A stretch of DNA of 64,000 bases. Origin: Deltaproteobacteria bacterium. GTDB taxonomy: Bacteria; Desulfobacterota; Desulfomonilia; UBA1062. The position numbers and the translations under genes were made by a program. Positions 51,906 through 59,305 of this stretch are shown in pieces (positions within the stretch are counted from its first letter, which is position 1; every line of letters starts with the position of its first letter). Below the pieces are notes generated by a model that was not told where the DNA came from, did no database searches, and saw only the letters and a program-made list of their open reading frames with translations. The stretch covers positions 55,224-119,223 of the forward strand of contig JAHDRW010000011.1 in the NCBI GenBank assembly GCA_018433085.1, given 5' to 3'.

Positions 51906-51992
51906 GCCGGAGTGGTGGAAGTGGTAGACGCGTCGGACTCAAAATCCGATGAGCGCAAGCTCGTGGGGGTTCAAGTCCCTTCTCCGGCACCA
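51906..51992 (+). tRNA. tRNA-Leu (anticodon CAA), type II with a long variable arm, CCA encoded
   Basis: Acceptor stem GCCGGAG/CTCCGGC, D-arm GTGGTGGAAGTGGTAGACGC, anticodon stem-loop TCGGA-CTCAAAA-TCCGA and a 16-nt variable arm. Its 3' 55 nt are duplicated 6.3 kb downstream. Confidence 0.85.
51938..51992 (+). repeat. attL: a 55-bp core inside the 3' half of tRNA-Leu, identical to 58284..58338
   Basis: An exact 55/55 match, with divergence immediately on both sides of the repeat. Confidence 0.85.
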
Positions 51993-52022
51993 TATTTTTA
52001 TTAAAGATTTTCCAAAAGAAGG

Positions 52023-53129
52023 TCATCTCTTAAACCCATTGATAACAGTAAGTGTGCCCAAATTGTGCCCATCGCCCGATCGGGAGAGGGTATCGTCGTT
52101 CTCCTGATACATGCTGGAGACCTTCTCGCAGGCAAGCCGGATATCATCTTCACTGGTAATATTGTACCTGTCGAATATGCTTCGTGTCTTGTGACCCGAT
52201 ATCCTCATGGCTACCACTTCAGACACCCCCGAACGAACCATATTCCTCACTGCCGTTCTTCTCAAGTCGTGGAATAAACGGCCCTCAAGATTGGTTTGCT
52301 TGAGCGCCTTCTCCCACACAGCTCGGAAGGTCTTGATTAGGGGCTCATCCTCTTCGTGATTGTAGAAGACATAAGTGCACTCCGGGTTTGTTGCGTCACG
52401 GATCTTCTTCTGTGTGAGAATGGTATCGAAGAGCTCACCATACATATAAACCACCCTGCCTTCACCGTTTTTTGTCGATCCCGGTTCCAGGACTATTCGA
52501 TGAGCCCAGATATCCACCTGATGCCACTGGAGGGCCAGGAGTTCCCCTCGCCTCATGCCCGTGTGATAGGCTGCAATCAGCAACGGCCTGGCGTAAGCAG
52601 GCAGGGCATCCCGGAGTTTCACGTATTCGTCAAACTCAAAGAAGCCTGTTCTCGCGTTGCTTTCTTTCAGCTTAGGGATATGCGGCACCATCATCACCTT
52701 TGGTGGTGTATGTCTTGAGCCAATAATGAAAGCCCTATGAAGAGCGCTCAGTTCGCGGTTAATAGTGCCATTCTTCGCTCCTGCTTCCCTGCGGGTCAGA
52801 ATATATTGCTGAACACTGTTTGTTGTGACCCGGCAAGCCCTGGCATCTCCGAAGAATTCCTTGAGATGATTAACGCTCGATTCTAGCCGCACCAGAGATT
52901 TCCTCTCCATTAGGCGATATTCGGAGATTGTATCCTCCAAGAGTTCCTTCACTGTTGTGCGTTCTACTTGAAGCCCTTGGAAGGTTCCTTGCGCAATGGA
53001 GCCTTCCCTGAGCTTCAGGAGCTTTTCAGCCACAGTCTTTTTCTCCGAGTGTGAAGATTCCCGATACGGTTTTCCATCACGATAATACTTGATCCACCAG
53101 ACATTGCCTCGCTGAAAAACGCTTCCCAT
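52023..53129 (-). CDS. int: Tyrosine-type site-specific integrase
   Basis: N-terminal SAM-like/arm-binding region and C-terminal catalytic domain (...RHTPPKVMMVPH...HDLRRTAVRNMVRSG...GHKTRSIFDRY). It lies next to the tRNA. Confidence 0.85.
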   Translation of the reverse strand: MGSVFQRGNVWWIKYYRDGKPYRESSHSEKKTVAEKLLKLREGSIAQGTFQGLQVERTTVKELLEDTISEYRLMERKSLVRLESSVNHLKEFFGDARACRVTTNSVQQYILTRREAGAKNGTINRELSALHRAFIIGSRHTPPKVMMVPHIPKLKESNARTGFFEFDEYVKLRDALPAYARPLLIAAYHTGMRRGELLALQWHQVDIWAHRIVLEPGSTKNGEGRVVYMYGELFDTILTQKKIRDATNPECTYVFYNHEEDEPLIKTFRAVWEKALKQTNLEGRLFHDLRRTAVRNMVRSGVSEVVAMRISGHKTRSIFDRYNITSEDDIRLACEKVSSMYQENDDTLSRSGDGHNLGTLTVINGFKR

Positions 53130-53281
53130 ATCAAACCACCTTAACCTTTCTCGCCGTGGGTACTGCCTTTGTGCACACCTCCTTTCTCTCCATGGACTCG
53201 AAACAGAACAGGTGAATTGTCTTTGGCTTCCTGTTCTGGCTCTGCCCTAATTGTAGTCTCATCTTCATGGTAATGTAAGCC

Positions 53282-53482
53282 TCAAAAAGGATAGGTTGTC
53301 TTGCTCTTCTCAATCCACTTGTCCATATCGTTCACATCAAGGAGCACGCGCCTTCCATCACGGACACAGGGAATCTTGCCCGCCCAGACCATTTCTCGGA
53401 TTGCCCAGGGAGTTCGGCCAAGGTAGGTTGCGGACTCCTTTATGGAATACAATCTCTTTAATGGTCTTGTCTTTTCTGCCAT
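53282..53482 (-). CDS. alpA: AlpA-family phage transcriptional regulator / excisionase-like HTH
   Basis: The 66-aa product has RLYSIKESATYLGRTPWAIREMVWAGKIPCVRDGRRVL, the AlpA/MerR-like HTH pattern. It sits directly upstream of int. Confidence 0.7.
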   Translation of the reverse strand: MAEKTRPLKRLYSIKESATYLGRTPWAIREMVWAGKIPCVRDGRRVLLDVNDMDKWIEKSKTTYPF

Positions 53483-53492
53483 TCGTTCAGTT

Positions 53493-53687
53493 TTAAGATG
53501 CTCTCATGTATATCCGCTGCTTTGACCTTGCCGCATTCTCAAGAACACCGATCCTTGAATCCACGTAATCATATACAGTGGCCTCATTCTTCCCTGGTGC
53601 CGGTCTAGCAATCACTACACACCCCATGTGATACAGCCGAAAAGCCGAAAACGCCGCCCGCAGGATTTTGGCCCTTTTTCTTCCCAT
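53493..53687 (-). CDS. Small hypothetical protein (64 aa)
   Basis: ORF lying between alpA and the next cargo gene. Support comes from context only. Confidence 0.2.
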   Translation of the reverse strand: MGRKRAKILRAAFSAFRLYHMGCVVIARPAPGKNEATVYDYVDSRIGVLENAARSKQRIYMRAS

Positions 53688-53870
53688 TTTCCCAGTTGAC
53701 GTGCTGCATAAGATTACCCCCTACCCCTGGTAATACTAGAGAGTACTGTCACCCATGCCCCCCATTGGGTCTTTTGGGGATTTATGGGCATGTCTGCCTG
53801 CAAGGTATCATGATTGCCTGTTTTGCCGCTTCTCTGGGCTTTTCTTTCGGCTGTCATCTATGCCCCCCTT

Positions 53871-54461
53871 TCACTGCTGCCTTTTAGGTCTTCGGCTGTC
53901 ACCCACGACAGTGAGTCGGCTATCGCCCATGTCAGTCGAAAATGTTTTATCTCCCGCCACTGCCCGCAATCTCTTTCCGGCCGTCCTGGCCTGGTTGTAT
54001 ATTGCCAGAGAGTCGCTGAAGCACACCCCCTTCGGTGCAGTCCTTTGGGTAAAAGCAGAGGTTCCATAATGCTTCCAGTCATCAATAAGGTCATACTCGC
54101 TGCATTCCTTATGACCACGAAACTGGCCGCCTTGCTTGGCAATTTCGAGGAAGCCGTGCTCTATGAGTTCCTTAAGGCAACGCCTGAACTGCTTTGCATT
54201 AATGCCGTATGCCGCCGCTTCACTGTATGGAAGTTTCAGCCCGGTATTATGGTAAACAGGCTTCTTCTTGCGGCCTTGTTTATCGGTGTGCCATCCTCGC
54301 CTTGAGAGAAATAGCATCAGGATGTACTTGGCTGTGTGCGTTAACGAGATGAAAGCCTCAGACCGAAGCATCTCCTGAGGCATCCGCAGATCGCGTTCAT
54401 GATACCACTTATTCTGTTTCAGATTCTTTATGTCCGGTGATTTCATAGGTTCTCCCTGCAA
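53871..54461 (-). CDS. Hypothetical protein with a winged-helix-like segment; possible replication or regulatory function
   Basis: Segment YSEAAAYGINAKQFRRCLKELIEHGFLEIAKQGG resembles a wHTH. No catalytic motif is present. A start at the internal Met (54446) is possible. Confidence 0.4.
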   Translation of the reverse strand: MQGEPMKSPDIKNLKQNKWYHERDLRMPQEMLRSEAFISLTHTAKYILMLFLSRRGWHTDKQGRKKKPVYHNTGLKLPYSEAAAYGINAKQFRRCLKELIEHGFLEIAKQGGQFRGHKECSEYDLIDDWKHYGTSAFTQRTAPKGVCFSDSLAIYNQARTAGKRLRAVAGDKTFSTDMGDSRLTVVGDSRRPKRQQ

Positions 54462-54577: not shown

Positions 54578-54961
54578 TTATATCCGGCTTGATGAATCAT
54601 GCACTTTCTCCCAGCGGGGGCGAAAAACACCCCTGCCGGTGATGTTTTTTTGAGAAAGAGGGGCATTCTGGTGGTTCTCTCTTGCCTGCCTGAAGGGGTG
54701 AAGTGGGCAGTCACTACTTGGGCACAGACGAACTTCAGAAGGTTGCCCTGCGCAACACCACAGACAGTAAGACCGAATCGCCCTGTTTCTGTCTTTCGGG
54801 TTTTGTTTCCCTCTGCCCATCCTGAAAGGATAAAGGGCACAATCTGTCATGGGACACTCGGCTACATCCTTCGTGCTCCTGGCTGAACAATCAAGGCATT
54901 TCTCTCGGATAGCTTGCCGCCTGTTGAGTTTACCCCTTAGTTTACAAGACTTTTTATTCAT
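54578..54961 (-). CDS. Small Cys-rich protein with two tandem C4 zinc-ribbon repeats
   Basis: Internal duplication: AIREKCLDCSARSTKDVAECPMTDCALYPFR and AIRSYCLWCCAGQPSEVRLCPSSDCPLHPFR. Each copy is C-x2-C-x9-C-P-x3-C-x-L-[YH]-P-F-R. Confidence 0.5.
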   Translation of the reverse strand: MNKKSCKLRGKLNRRQAIREKCLDCSARSTKDVAECPMTDCALYPFRMGRGKQNPKDRNRAIRSYCLWCCAGQPSEVRLCPSSDCPLHPFRQARENHQNAPLSQKNITGRGVFRPRWEKVHDSSSRI

Positions 54962-54972
54962 GCCGCTTCGTC

Positions 54973-55209
54973 CTACACAACTCCCGCTTCATTTGTTTTA
55001 TGCTCGTCTGCATATGCCTCATCCTCGCTCAATCCCAGGCAGGAGCAGAGTTTCTTGACTCTCTTATCACCCAGCTTAGGCCTGTCGATGCCTGCACTGA
55101 TTTTGTAGAGCATCCCCGGCGATACACCTGCATCCCACGCGATCTGATAAAGAGGCTTCCCTGATTCCTTTACGCTTTTCAGCGCTTTCATGAACTTCTC
55201 GCTAACCAT
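54973..55209 (-). CDS. Cro/CI-type (XRE-like) HTH DNA-binding protein
   Basis: HTH segment KPLYQIAWDAGVSPGMLYKISAG. The start was moved to the ATG at 55209. The gene lies divergent from the resolvase across an AT-rich promoter region. Confidence 0.5.
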   Translation of the reverse strand: MVSEKFMKALKSVKESGKPLYQIAWDAGVSPGMLYKISAGIDRPKLGDKRVKKLCSCLGLSEDEAYADEHKTNEAGVV

Positions 55210-55714
55210 TTCGTTTCCCCTTTGTTGGCTTGTCGCCCATTGCTCTGTTTCCCCTGATGATATTTTTAAGTTTTCTCTCAAGTTTTTCTCTCATCTGCCG
55301 AATATATTTTTATTCTGCGCGTCTATATTCCTTATCGTCTGAAGTCTAGAGTGCATCTAGTAGAAAATAAGAAAAAAGATCTCCTCAGTTGCTCGCTAGC
55401 CTTGTTTTTTCTCCGCTAATGAGTAAGGCAATTGTTAGGACTGCCTAGTGCCTTTGCTCTGTAGATATTCAGTAAATACCACCATTGCTTGGCCGAATAT
55501 TTCAGGTTTTATCAGGTTGTCATGGAATAACTCCTCTTTAGGTACTGAAACTTAAGTTATCTAAAGTAATTGATACGCTATTTGATCGACACTAGATCCC
55601 TTAACCAGACCAGGCTTTTTTACACACCGGACGGTATGTAAAAACCAATGGTTGACTATGGATGATAATTGTATTAGATTTATTGGAGATAATTGATATA
55701 TGGAGGTGAGGGCT

Positions 55715-56389
55715 ATGAGATATGTTATTTATCTGAGGGTAAGCACGGATGAGCAGGCAGACAGCAAGGCAGGGCTCAATGCTCAGTTGGATTCCTGCAG
55801 GGCGCACATTAAACGAAATAGTGGTGAATGCCTTGATGTCTTTTCTGACGAGGGAATCAGCGGAGCCGCAGGCTTGGAGAAAAGGCCCGGATTGCTCCAA
55901 GCCATTGCTTCACTCGACAAGGGTGACACCCTATTGGTTGCCAAACGGGACCGGCTCGGAAGAGATCCTATCGTAACGGCCATGATTGAGAGCGCCATTG
56001 CCCGGAAGAAGGCAAGGGTAGTTTCAGCGGCGGGGGAAGGCACGGATGGTGATAGCCCTTCCGATGTTCTCATGAGAAGGATGATAGATGCCTTTGCGGA
56101 ATACGAACGATTAATCATCAAGGCCCGGACATCGAGTGCATTGCAGGCCAAGAAGACGCGAAATGAGCGTGTGGGCTCCATTCCTTACGGCTTCAGGCTT
56201 TCTGGTGACGGCGTACACATTGAAGAGAACCCGGCAGAGCAGGAGGTTATAACCGAGATCAGGAGACTTGGAACGGCAGGACTTAACCTTCCGGCCATAT
56301 GCAGAGAGCTTGAACGAAAGGGATTCACCACCAGGACGGGCAAGGCATTCCTGCCCGTACAGGTTCAGAGGGTATTGAAAGCGGCATGA
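55715..56389 (+). CDS. Serine recombinase (resolvase/invertase family)
   Basis: N-terminus MRYVIYLRVSTDEQ with the catalytic Ser, followed by DTLLVAKRDRLGRD and a C-terminal recombinase/HTH extension. A GGAGGTGAGGG RBS is present. Confidence 0.8.
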   Translation: MRYVIYLRVSTDEQADSKAGLNAQLDSCRAHIKRNSGECLDVFSDEGISGAAGLEKRPGLLQAIASLDKGDTLLVAKRDRLGRDPIVTAMIESAIARKKARVVSAAGEGTDGDSPSDVLMRRMIDAFAEYERLIIKARTSSALQAKKTRNERVGSIPYGFRLSGDGVHIEENPAEQEVITEIRRLGTAGLNLPAICRELERKGFTTRTGKAFLPVQVQRVLKAA

Positions 56390-56721
56390 GCAAGAAGGCA
56401 ATCAACATGGATATGGTGCGGGAAGCCAGGGCAAACCTTGAGCGTATCGCCAGGGAGCACCCGGAGCTTACGAACCTGTCCGGTGATGATGTGGAACGAT
56501 TATTACAGGGAGTGTTCAACGAAATGGTAGACAAAGACAAACTGACCTTCTCTCTTGGAGAGGCAGCGGAGGTTCTGGGGCTTCACAAGGAATACCTGAG
56601 GCGTAAAATCAAAGACGGTTCTCTCAAGGCCATGAAGACCGGGAAGCAGTACATCATCTCACGGCCAGACCTGCAGGCTTACTATTCAAAGCATGGCGGC
56701 GGCAAGCTGTTCGATGATTGA
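56386..56721 (+). CDS. Excisionase-family helix-turn-helix DNA-binding protein
   Basis: C-terminal FSLGEAAEVLGLHKEYLRRKIKDGSLKAMKTGKQYIISRPDLQAYY matches the excisionase-family HTH. The ATG overlaps the resolvase stop (ATGA). Confidence 0.6.
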   Translation: MSKKAINMDMVREARANLERIAREHPELTNLSGDDVERLLQGVFNEMVDKDKLTFSLGEAAEVLGLHKEYLRRKIKDGSLKAMKTGKQYIISRPDLQAYYSKHGGGKLFDD

Positions 56722-57181
56722 TTTCAGACAATAGAGACTTGCATCGCTGCCCTCTGCGGTCAAGTGGCAAGGATGTTAGCAAATATTAGCATCAAAGGAG
56801 CCCTCGATAATAAGTAACAAGAAGGGAAATCATCAGTGTCCGAGATTGTTGACAAATGTTTACATTCAGGAAGCCCTTGATTATAAGAGACCGGATACAG
56901 CGAGAAGACCGCAGCCAATATAGCGTCAGAGAACCTTAGAAAACCATATATTCAGGAAGCTCTCCGCGAACTCCGCGAAAAATTGGCTCAGAAAACCGCA
57001 TTGTATACCGAGAAGACCGCTAAAGATATCTCATACCAAGACAACAATTATAGTAAATATATCTAAGCCTGATGCACAGCGGTATTCTCTTTTTTATCTT
57101 AATCATACACATTGTCCCTTGCAACAGAGACTTTTCTTCTTTATTAATAATACAGTGTTATTCTTGTTTAGGAGGACTGAA

Positions 57182-57541
57182 ATGAGGTATTTGATAGCCA
57201 TTGTCTGTATGCTTTCCCTGTCCGGGTGCGCCGTGAATGCTACCGGCATCAGTAGGGATACCGGCGAAACTTTGTCTATCCACTATCAGAGTAATGCTAT
57301 AACGAACAAAATCTCTGCCGCTGCCGGAGATGAGTCGTTCAGGGGTAAGATAGTCTCCACGGGTGGCGGGACTATTTCCGATGAATACGGCAACCGAGTC
57401 AAAATCTCCGGGAACACCTACAGGGCTGTTTTTGTCGGAGACAGAGGCCGCACCATGAGGTGTGAGCTGTGCGGTGGCCTTGCAAGCGGTGTCGGCACCT
57501 GTATTACATCGGATGGGGAAGAGTTCGATGTTATGTGGTAG
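57182..57541 (+). CDS. Hypothetical lipoprotein (120 aa)
   Basis: Lipobox MRYLIAIVCMLSLSGCAV. A GGAGGA RBS is present. No known domain. Confidence 0.5.
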   Translation: MRYLIAIVCMLSLSGCAVNATGISRDTGETLSIHYQSNAITNKISAAAGDESFRGKIVSTGGGTISDEYGNRVKISGNTYRAVFVGDRGRTMRCELCGGLASGVGTCITSDGEEFDVMW

Positions 57542-57571
57542 AAGCGTAATATCTCTAACTCTGTAGTCGTT

Positions 57572-58045
57572 ATGAGAGGTTGGGTCTATATAATTACGAA
57601 CAAAGCAATGCCGGGTCTTGTTAAAATTGGGTTTTCAATGAGAGATCCTGTAAATCGCGCATCCGAACTCGATAACACAGGCTCACCCCATCCTTATGTT
57701 GTTGAGTATGATATGCTTATTGAAGACCCGCAACAGCTTGAAAAGCAAGTTCATGAGACTCTTAAGAATGCGAATGAAGGGAAAGAATGGTTCCGTTGCT
57801 CAGTGCATGATGCGATAAAAGAAATCCAGAAGGCGTCGTTGGGTAAATTCATATATCAGAACTATACTAATAACGAGAAAGAAAATGACAGGGTTGTTTA
57901 TTGGCATAAAGAGATAGATATGGAACGCCCCCCATCCAAAACTGCCCAAGATACACAATCACCTCTAAGACAGAAAGAAGTGTATGACTCGACTGAAAAA
58001 CTGAGATTATGGCAAGAGAAGGTCTATAAGGCCAAAAAGCCCTGA
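57572..58045 (+). CDS. T5orf172 / GIY-YIG-like domain protein
   Basis: WVYIITNKAMPGLVKIGFSMRDPVNRASELDNTGSPHPYVVEY...EWFRCSVHDA matches the T5orf172 (GIY-YIG-related) domain pattern. Confidence 0.6.
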   Translation: MRGWVYIITNKAMPGLVKIGFSMRDPVNRASELDNTGSPHPYVVEYDMLIEDPQQLEKQVHETLKNANEGKEWFRCSVHDAIKEIQKASLGKFIYQNYTNNEKENDRVVYWHKEIDMERPPSKTAQDTQSPLRQKEVYDSTEKLRLWQEKVYKAKKP

Positions 58046-58283
58046 TTCACATTTTCCCCAGATTAGGAATGCTCCCCTATGCTGTAAGGGGGAAATTGAT
58101 AGTTTTCAAATATCGGTCAATCCCATTATTCATGGGAAAAAGGAGTGTGCCCAAATTGTGCCCACGACGGCTAAATTCTTCCCAATTCCTACCAACTCCT
58201 ACCAACTAGCCGAATTGCTTAACCGATTGAAATCATTTGCCAGTGCGCCTTTGCAGGCTAGTAATATCAAACGGTTAATGCTC

Positions 58284-58338
58284 TCAAAATCCGATGAGCG
58301 CAAGCTCGTGGGGGTTCAAGTCCCTTCTCCGGCACCAC
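58284..58338 (+). repeat. attR: a 55-bp direct repeat of the tRNA-Leu 3' half
   Basis: Identical to 51938..51992 and ending with the CCA-equivalent bases. The flanks diverge. Confidence 0.85.
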
Positions 58339-58861
58339 ATCTTTCTAATCGGTCTGAGGGCGCCGACATTTTTTTCGCAGGTCCACCGAGTGTATTGTTT
58401 ACCTCCACGCTTTTCACTCCAGGAGGAAGACGCGGAAATCATTACCAGGTCCATAGCCCTCCCGGTCTGGACCTCGAGTCCTGATATATTCACGGTTGCC
58501 GCTCATAAAGGACCATGCTGTCCTGAGGAGCCGAACTCGCGTAGTGGTATGGAGTAGAAAGCCTCCGATTCCCGGGAATAAGAAAAAACCGAGCCCTGGA
58601 TTAAGAGCATACCGATATCCTTTCAGTATTCTCCTGCCTGAGAATGTGAACTCGTCCCCGGATTCCCCCGAGGAGAAAAATCTCAAAGGACGGGGTCGAT
58701 TCTCATGGCGTTATTGCATAAGGGTGGTAAACTTACCATTCCCATTTTTGGTAAACTTTTATCTTCCCGTTGACAATAATACCGATTAATCAAAGAAGAC
58801 ATCGGCTATCGAAGGGGGGATTTCTCGGTTCCTTTCCTGGTGGAATTCAAGCAGGGGGAGT

Positions 58862-59305
58862 ATGGAGGGATTGATTCGTGCGGCTGTCGGGCGTTTCCGG
58901 TTCGAGATCATCAATCCTTTCGAAGTCGGCAACGGACGCATAGCGCGGGCTCTCACGGACATGGCCCTTGCCCAGGACGATTCTCAGAAGCACAGGTATT
59001 ACAGCTTGTCATCCCAGATCATGGAGGAGCGGGAGAGCTGCTGCGATGTCCTGGAAGCCTGTCAGAAGGGGGCCAGCGACATCACCCCGTGGCTTGTCTG
59101 GTTCCTGGAATGTTTCTCCCGGGCCATTGACCGGTCCGAGCTCCTCCTATCCGGAGTCATCAGAAAGGCGAGCTTCTGGAGGATGCATGCACAGACATCA
59201 CTGAACGAGAGGCAGCACAAGGTCATCAATAGGCTTCTCGATGCAGGGCCGAATGGTTTCGAAGGAGGCCTTACCACAAGGAAGTACGCTTCGTGGCCAA
59301 AGTGA
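58862..59305 (+). pseudogene. Fic-family protein remnant (5'-truncated, motif His replaced by Asn)
   Basis: FRFEIINPFEVGNGRIARAL corresponds to the Fic motif HPFxxGNGR, with N in place of H. The roughly 100-aa N-terminal helical region is absent and no upstream in-frame continuation exists. Confidence 0.5.

Follow-up and report, generated by a model that had tools for sequence, protein, structure and literature searches.

We found that a small gene in a 64-kb stretch of DNA from a Deltaproteobacteria bacterium (contig JAHDRW010000011.1; "the window" below means this whole stretch of 64,000 nucleotides) encodes a protein with two tandem four-cysteine (Cys4) modules, and that the module defines a very large family without a name in Pfam, NCBIfam, PHROGs or PADLOC, whose members carry one, two or, rarely, three modules. 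The gene, here called Cys4x2 (54578..54961, minus strand), lies in an integrative element at a tRNA-Leu gene. In phages and in minimalist integrative islands, the Cys4 gene holds a conserved slot at the junction between the regulatory switch and the replication module. We tentatively propose that the Cys4x2 protein is a metal-stabilised, pseudo-dimeric, nucleic-acid-binding accessory factor of an early replication or regulation programme, a reading for which we claim plausibility rather than probability.

The Cys4 module and its family

The translated open reading frame (ORF) of Cys4x2 has 127 residues. Module A (AIREKCLDCSARSTKDVAECPMTDCALYPFRMG; residues 17-49, window 54815..54913, minus strand) carries Cys22, Cys25, Cys36 and Cys41, while module B (AIRSYCLWCCAGQPSEVRLCPSSDCPLHPFRQA; residues 61-93, window 54683..54781, minus strand) carries Cys66, Cys69, Cys80 and Cys85. 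They are followed by a basic C-terminal tail (residues 94-127, window 54581..54682, minus strand), which is predicted to be disordered with a predicted local distance difference test score (pLDDT) of 57-62. Both modules are co-linear and share the consensus AIRxxCLxC-x10-C-x4-CxL[YH]PFR. When the two halves were aligned by BLASTP, 18 of 37 positions were identical (49%) in a gapless alignment (E=7e-12), and a profile hidden Markov model (HMM) built from single-module homologues only scored module A at 71.5 bits and module B at 64.7 bits separately, indicating a duplication far beyond chance. The original prediction, made from the letters alone, had described two cysteine repeats in this product. 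The tandem arrangement stood; however, the cysteine spacing had to be corrected to C-x2-C-x10-C-x4-C, as the x9 and x3 first given were each off by one. This spacing was kept in 402 of the 442 modules from the relatives collected, and no further copy of the module was found in the 64-kb window. We also considered whether the two modules had diverged unevenly and ruled this out on their equal scores against the single-module HMM.

The protein is strongly basic (isoelectric point, pI, of 10.0; 27 Lys and Arg vs 11 Asp and Glu) and contains 10 cysteines; the median pI of the Cys4 family is 9.4. None of the eight ligand cysteines has been lost, nor have the conserved Arg, Leu and Glu positions. 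The ATG start codon at 54961 is preceded by the purine-rich sequence AGGAcGAAG and lies 11 nt past the stop of the upstream helix-turn-helix (HTH) gene. Scans for promoters and terminators gave signals no better than shuffled sequence, and a search for iterons or operators near the gene returned short, unconvincing repeats only. The ratio of nonsynonymous to synonymous substitution rates (dN/dS, Nei-Gojobori) of the Cys4 gene was 0.38 against the related locus L091, 0.16 against L092, 0.11 against L095 and 0.17 against L098. The ORF at 54578-54961 is thus a functional gene under purifying selection. Together with the homologues described below, this range of 0.11-0.38 disposes of the concern that the ORF might be unconserved noise.

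A word-indexed search returned 228 homologues, mostly metagenomic and every one of them unnamed or labelled "hypothetical protein"; the named sources included Syntrophorhabdus, Syntrophobacteraceae and one Promethearchaeota metagenome-assembled genome (MAG). Among the 120 homologues listed, 66 had two modules, 53 had one (mostly proteins of 70-95 amino acids) and a single one had three. We then built a profile (A1) from 31 single-module proteins for an exhaustive search against 1.84 billion cluster representatives at 50% identity, which matched 12,245 proteins at E<=1e-3 and 6,108 at E<=1e-10. Both modules of the window protein matched the A1 HMM, with the family pattern "AIRxKCLDC...EVRLCP...CPLYPFRMG"; the defining columns are four invariant cysteines at x2/x10/x4 plus conserved I-R, E-V, L and R positions. 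The module occurs in two flavours, "CLDCS..." and "CLWCC..EVRLCP", neither of which is nearer the single-module consensus, and a sample of two-module proteins contained 43 in the order A-B and 43 in the order B-A. For the window protein and at least nine relatives, no named family scored above threshold in Pfam, NCBIfam, PHROGs or PADLOC, in line with the earlier impression that the repeat belongs to no recognised family, and members in RefSeq and GenBank (e.g. WP_158707304.1 and HPW37581.1) are labelled "hypothetical protein". Searching sequences of the PDB with the single- and two-module profiles gave chance matches to the S27e N-terminus at E~1 or nothing, a plasmid search for the family gave a single weak match, and no protein identical to that of the window was met elsewhere in the collection searched.

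Several features vary within the family. In many members (P0104, P0120, P0055, P0151 and L120 among them), the last module is followed at once by a conserved extension, GKNPNR(K/A)GIGG. The window subfamily is without it and has instead the linker GKGKQNPKDR and the tail motif NHQxAxLLQK, which is kept in close relatives only (consensus of A4, the narrower alignment that was used to scan genomes for relatives). P0043 (113 amino acids, MFX1538555.1) has two modules in B-A order; its annotated source is a 3-kb contig of a Promethearchaeota (Asgard) MAG, and it could come from an archaeal mobile element or be a binning artefact. Some genomes hold several elements: L091, L094 and L095 are separate elements of one MAG (LM3-B1m), and L096 and L100 are two elements of Desulfomonilia SPRUCE 18, each with its own two-module Cys4 gene.

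The fold was modelled with AlphaFold2. Using a 38-sequence alignment (A2), the window protein gave a mean pLDDT of 81, and above 90 for residues 11-90, with helices at residues 14-25 and 30-34 in module A and 55-69 and 74-78 in module B, zero strands, and disorder past residue 91. From these predicted positions, the first CxxC of each module would fall at the C-terminal end of a helix. The single-module relative P0096, modelled with A1, showed the same helix pattern without strands at a pLDDT of ~80-85, a lower confidence that is consistent with the modules stabilising each other as a dimer. The module had first been taken for a C4 zinc ribbon, a proposal that fared poorly: the two-module and single-module models are all helical and lack the beta-hairpin of such a fold, and no zinc-ribbon family HMM matched, Pfam at E<=1 giving a sub-threshold match to zf-C4pol only and NCBIfam and PHROGs nothing. 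From these models we infer that the Cys4 module is a small helical metal clasp, other than a beta zinc ribbon. The zf-C4pol family (PF14260) was the sole library family to recur, at 14.9 bits for the window protein and 16.0-19.2 bits for five relatives, below the Pfam gathering cut-off of 28.9 bits; the alignments always fell on the CysB half of the model (positions ~23-67). In some members, extra cysteines stand beside the second ligand (CLWCC, CLDCCC); these are not conserved. A known zinc-finger family such as TraR/DksA had been named as what might explain the repeat; no such match was found.

Gene neighbourhoods and the tRNA-Leu island

The setting of the Cys4 gene was compared across relatives. 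A tyrosine integrase lies within a few kb in all 11 Desulfobacterota-type loci, and the upstream neighbour is usually an HTH protein of 70-100 amino acids, HTH_17/Xis-like or XRE-like. Overlaps of 1-4 nt between the genes are frequent in these loci. Directly downstream stands either the winged-helix family of 196 amino acids (the window, L091, L096, L098 and L100, followed in L091 by a superfamily 2 (SF2) helicase) or a RepB-primase/DUF3987 primase-helicase (L001, L092, L093 and L095), while in L002 a primase-like protein and an AAA_25 helicase follow. A Firmicute-type element has the order Rha, Xis_Tn916, Cys4 (77 amino acids), a 218-residue protein and then Int_Tn916; another integrative element has resolvase, AAA_25, Cys4, a 76-residue protein and then HTH_17, and is adjoined by a Hachiman system. 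We looked for a specific downstream partner and dropped the idea, as the downstream proteins of different loci were unrelated to one another by BLASTP. Near-identical Cys4 genes stand ahead of replication genes whose products are unrelated, which makes a contact reserved for the downstream protein less likely than an action on DNA or on a host component.

A similar setting was seen in viruses, where the relatives are found in early regions devoted to regulation, replication and recombination. In IMG/VR, 511 loci encode a Cys4 relative, and cultured phages with one include Pseudomonas Samunavirus, Rhodobacter RcDurkin-like phages and Agrobacterium phage JP1; in the record of Samunavirus PA_L9, the genes that directly follow PAL9_40 are annotated as DNA replication proteins. 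At 71 viral loci, the downstream neighbours were enriched in DNA methyltransferases (~13 matches) and also included ribonucleotide reductase, DNA polymerases, primase, Sak4 and ThyX, while the upstream neighbours included transcriptional regulators and repressors. Within 4 kb of ten two-module viral loci we found DnaB-like helicases, primase/helicase, SSB, Erf, UvsX, Gam and repressors. Two-module proteins were also encoded on viral contigs of 39-150 kb with DnaB, portal and terminase genes close by. This weakened the idea, drawn from a parallel with Ogr/Delta, that the tandem form belongs to satellite-like islands and the single form to phages.

One relative is a fusion. In P0151 (L101, 6001-6753), an HUH Rep-like domain at the N-terminus is followed by two Cys4 modules; its HUH side carries the motifs FCTFTF, HVHALVG and YYLGKKV, and the Pfam match to REP_ORF2-G2P (6.5e-4) is below the cut-off. 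Its gene has a tyrosine integrase on one side and a large serine recombinase on the other, in an integrase-bearing element.

In the window, tRNA gene detection placed tRNA-Leu(caa) at 51906-51992. Its 3' part forms attL (51938..51999, plus strand) and recurs as attR (58283..58344, plus strand), a direct repeat of 62 nt that is 97% identical, and the two enclose an integrated element of 6.3 kb; the claim that the gene is island-encoded therefore held. The element is a partly decayed mosaic, in which blastn found segments 83-95% identical to other loci: 51933-53476 to L001, 53604-54931 to L091, 55525-57038 to L001 and 57103-57541 to L095. The second segment, 95% identical to the MAG locus L091, spans the Cys4 and winged-helix genes, and one of its breakpoints falls within the Cys4 gene, 30 nt in from the 5' end, so that the N-terminus differs. 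About 1.26 kb of L091 is absent from the window; it encodes a ResIII/DEAD SF2 helicase of 461 amino acids (Pfam; L091 9347-10732), of which a 110-nt 3' remnant is left at 53498..53607 on the minus strand (blastn vs L091 9358-10730). The 64-residue ORF at 53493-53687 is this helicase remnant. The att/int/xis end and the serine-recombinase unit are 93-95% identical to L001 in nucleotides (95% for the integrase and 99% for the recombinase as proteins), whereas L001 has an unrelated upstream gene of 84 amino acids and, in the winged-helix slot, a RepB-primase/DUF3987 primase-helicase of 912 amino acids. L092, from the Phox-21 MAG, has only the Cys4 core in common with the window (91% in nucleotides), with its primase-helicase downstream. 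Thus, the Cys4 core is 91-95% identical to L091 and L092 even though a primase-helicase replaces the winged-helix protein in L092, and these comparisons, with that of L001, indicate that the Cys4 gene was kept intact while both flanks were exchanged. That the 196-residue protein is a remnant of a DUF3987 primase-helicase was rejected, as BLASTP found no similarity.

The leftward operon runs HTH, Cys4x2, winged-helix initiator-like protein, the deleted SF2 helicase, xis and int, with Cys4x2 as its second gene. Its place between the winged-helix and the Cro-like proteins, as first noticed, was confirmed. The first gene encodes a small Cro/XRE-like HTH protein (54973..55281, minus strand; weak HTH_31/HTH_3 matches, phrog_8 and phrog_4268). 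Its true start is probably an internal ATG near 55209 (MVSEKF...), giving ~78 rather than 102 amino acids; this ATG is preceded by the ribosome-binding site GGGGAAA, and the homologues have 71-83 amino acids and adjoin the Cys4 gene upstream in L096 and L002. The winged-helix protein of 196 amino acids (53871..54461, minus strand) is DnaD-like or replication-initiator-like, matching the DnaD-like helicase loader phrog_186 at 2.6e-5 and other replication-initiation PHROGs. Further along are an excisionase/AlpA-like HTH_17 protein of 66 amino acids (53282..53482, minus strand; PF12728 8.7e-10, TIGR01764 1.4e-8) and the tyrosine integrase of 368 amino acids (52023..53129, minus strand; PF00589 1.6e-20). 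A divergent unit (55700..56721, plus strand) encodes a serine recombinase of 229 amino acids (PF00239 2.7e-32) and an HTH_17 protein of 111 amino acids (PF12728 8.3e-10), and the cargo (57119..58045, plus strand) comprises a lipoprotein-like ORF of 140 amino acids and a T5orf172 protein of 157 amino acids (PF10544 1.4e-13).

Other observations were made on the island. The T5orf172/GIY-YIG-like protein (57572-58045, plus strand) matched PADLOC PDC-S57 at 5e-23 and also PD-Lambda-1, and, judged by sequence, is probably a candidate defence cargo of the island. The HTH_17 protein at 56386-56721 (plus strand) gave a weak PADLOC match to the MADS protein mad1 (1e-5), as did its xis-like paralogue at 53282-53482 in NCBIfam (2e-3). 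A perfect 21-nt direct repeat, AGTGTGCCCAAATTGTGCCCA, stands just within both island ends (52051-52071 and 58144-58164) and may represent integrase arm-type sites. A 13-nt palindrome, TTTTTACACACCG/CGGTATGTAAAAA, at 55617-55644 between the HTH operon and the serine recombinase is a candidate operator. Just downstream of the winged-helix gene, an imperfect 21-nt direct repeat (53746-53766 and 53851-53871; 86% identical, 105 nt apart) is accompanied by an 11-nt repeat, TTCGGCTGTCA; these may be iteron-like sequences or mere remnants. Directly outside attR lies a Fic-like fragment (58862-59305, plus strand) with the motif FEVGNGRIAR.

Proposed role and rival explanations

In the proposed role, each module would fold around one metal ion held by its four invariant cysteines, most likely Zn2+, with [4Fe-4S] possible, and the two modules would pack as a covalent pseudo-dimer, the counterpart of a homodimer formed by the single-module proteins of phages. 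The Cys4x2 protein would be made together with the Cro-like regulator and the replication proteins, would act in the early programme of the element and, by binding element DNA and/or making a bridge to a constant host factor, would help to initiate replication or to control early promoters. A regulator or anti-repressor had first been suggested from the position of the gene; the conserved link with replication and early-region genes fits a regulator, and fits a replication accessory protein at least as well. However, several points weigh against this proposal. The Cys4 gene of Agrobacterium phage JP1 lies between terminase and portal, P0067 has a seemingly ordinary chromosomal neighbourhood, and the P0038 locus has no recognisable replication gene nearby. 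A fold search of the PDB with the two-module model returned no match and no structural neighbour of known function. Guilt by association is weak, since small early genes also include host-takeover and anti-defence factors, and the conserved charged residues R19/R63, E76 and R47/R91 could be structural rather than DNA-contacting. Moreover, the window element has lost its helicase, and its Cys4 gene may by now have no functional replication module to serve.

The slot right after a Cro-like gene invites another explanation, in that lambda carries cII just after cro: the protein could be a transcription factor directed at RNA polymerase, a functional analogue of Ogr/Delta that binds the polymerase or sigma and switches on the next set of genes, with the tandem form as a covalent dimer. 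A small basic Cys4 protein of phages and integrative elements in single and tandem forms, with transcriptional regulators frequently upstream, would suit such a factor; yet PF04606 gave no match to the window protein at E<=1, the family has a spacer of x10 vs x22 and a predicted helical fold, its gene stands in an early replication-side operon away from late and structural genes, and tandem forms reach beyond satellite-like islands to the 39-150-kb viral contigs. We consider this explanation unlikely. The same holds, more firmly, for an early host-takeover or anti-defence protein, whose Cys4 module would serve as a compact scaffold for binding proteins and would block an enzyme of host defence or DNA metabolism. 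Such a protein would travel with phages and with islands that have to survive entry. The frequent adjacency of orphan DNA methyltransferases (~13 matches among the 71 viral downstream neighbours), the varying genomic position that includes the terminase/portal interval of JP1, and the defence cargo on the same islands (Hachiman, DUF499/DUF1156 and the PDC-S57-like T5orf172 protein in the window) point towards it, and a near-identical gene that keeps different neighbours is expected of a host-factor target. Set against these are a strongly basic protein unlike an acidic DNA mimic, blank results from PADLOC and, for known anti-defence families, from the libraries searched, the tight coupling to replication genes in integrative elements with frequent stop/start overlaps, and the fusion of P0151 to a Rep-like domain.

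A further alternative concerns the cofactor and is compatible with the accessory-factor proposal: each module could hold a [4Fe-4S] cluster rather than zinc, making the protein a redox- or oxygen-sensitive replication-associated factor. The recurring sub-threshold matches of the window protein and five relatives (14.9-19.2 bits) fall on CysB, which in Pol delta holds [4Fe-4S] (PMC8495945); a helical module is predicted, strict anaerobes are the source of the closest relatives, and extra cysteines occur beside the second ligand. All these scores are nevertheless well under 28.9 bits and may mirror the cysteine pattern alone, the family is also found in phages of aerobes (Pseudomonas, Agrobacterium and Rhodobacter), zinc is the usual occupant of Cys4 sites of such a size, and the extra cysteines are not conserved, so we regard a cluster as hardly probable. 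In this window, the gene might also be a passenger in a dead element, intact because the decay is recent and without present function. The mosaic island, the 1.26-kb deletion that took the SF2 helicase, the altered N-terminus at the L091 breakpoint and a protein sequence met nowhere else in the collection searched could be read in this way. Against it stand an unbroken ORF behind a plausible ribosome-binding site, the retention of every ligand cysteine (eight in all) and of the conserved Arg, Leu and Glu, a dN/dS of 0.38 even against the closest relative, and an intact integrase, xis and pair of att repeats. We hold the passenger explanation to be very improbable.

Small Cys4 proteins of mobile elements are already known. 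What is new is a large family, of at least 12,000 clusters at 50% identity, without a Pfam, NCBIfam or PHROG model, a solved structure or a name. A broader reading, which we put forward as doubtful, is that tailed phages and small integrative or satellite-like elements of many bacterial phyla share this undescribed helical Cys4 domain, possibly binding an iron-sulphur cluster, as a general early co-factor that acts as a dimer in DNA replication or transcription, with tandem hetero-duplicates (A-B or B-A) as covalent dimers. If true, it would rank among the larger core accessory families of the mobilome that have gone unrecognised. The findings contradict nothing in current understanding. Defining the family would better annotate phage early regions and satellites, and in practical terms the module should not be annotated as a zinc ribbon. 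The islands with a Cys4 gene include PICMI-like int/HTH_17/DUF3987 elements, in which the equivalent gene is of unknown function, and the homologues in cultured Pseudomonas, Rhodobacter and Agrobacterium phages are tractable for studying how small elements start replication or early transcription.

Comparison with known systems

We compared the family with other small Cys4 proteins. TraR/DksA proteins are likewise small C4 proteins, common in prophages and conjugative elements, and carry the motif C-x2-C-x17-C-x2-C at the end of a coiled coil; the window protein had no HMM match to PF01258 at E<=1, and a long coiled coil is not predicted in it. Mu Com is a Cys4 zinc-finger translational activator whose gene lies just upstream of, and overlaps, the DNA-modification gene mom. 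Similarly, many single-module homologues precede DNA methyltransferase genes, but their cysteine spacing differs from that of Com, and no sequence match was found in the libraries searched.

The C-terminal domain of eukaryotic family-B polymerases (PF14260) offers a closer cysteine pattern. CysB of Pol delta is spaced C-x2-C-x9-C-x4-C, similar to the four cysteines of the Cys4 module, and both are linked to DNA replication proteins. Unlike zf-C4pol, with its Pol delta CysB cluster (PMC8495945), the window module is a free-standing unit of ~35 residues outside any polymerase and without the CysA partner motif, and the likeness is sub-threshold.

The Ogr/Delta family has single and tandem double units, P4 Delta resembling a tandem duplication of Ogr. 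Like the window family, these are small Cys4 metal-binding proteins of phages and integrative satellites that end in a C-x4-C pair. The parallel of single P2 Ogr and tandem P4 Delta is structural only. The Ogr/Delta cysteines are spaced x2/x22/x4 instead of x2/x10/x4, and neither the window protein (at E<=1) nor the relatives scanned (at the limits applied to them) had an HMM match to PF04606. The delta gene of P4 and the ogr gene of P2 are homologous late-gene activators (PMC8628076), whereas the window family is predicted to be helical and stands in an early or replication operon rather than a late-control position. Its tandem forms, unlike the P4 Delta setting, are not confined to satellites.

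By position, the Cys4 gene resembles up1 of PICMI (phage-inducible chromosomal minimalist islands). In PICMI, the small gene between alpA and prim is up1 or one of eight other families, its role is unknown, and alpA-up1-prim forms an early regulon (PMC10803314). PICMI are Vibrionaceae elements integrated next to fis, whereas the window element carries the int (52023-53129) and AlpA/HTH_17 (53282-53482) markers of PICMI- and P4-like satellites together with the winged-helix protein and the helicase remnant in place of a primase, neither DUF3987/DUF5906 nor P4 alpha being found within it. The marker set by which these minimalist satellites are defined is matched by relatives that combine int, HTH_17 and a DUF3987 primase. 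In the small integrase-bearing islands L001, L092, L093 and L095, the Cys4 gene holds the slot directly upstream of the DUF3987 primase-helicase, as up1 does upstream of prim, a likeness by position only; in L001 and L095, a small gene precedes the Cys4 gene.

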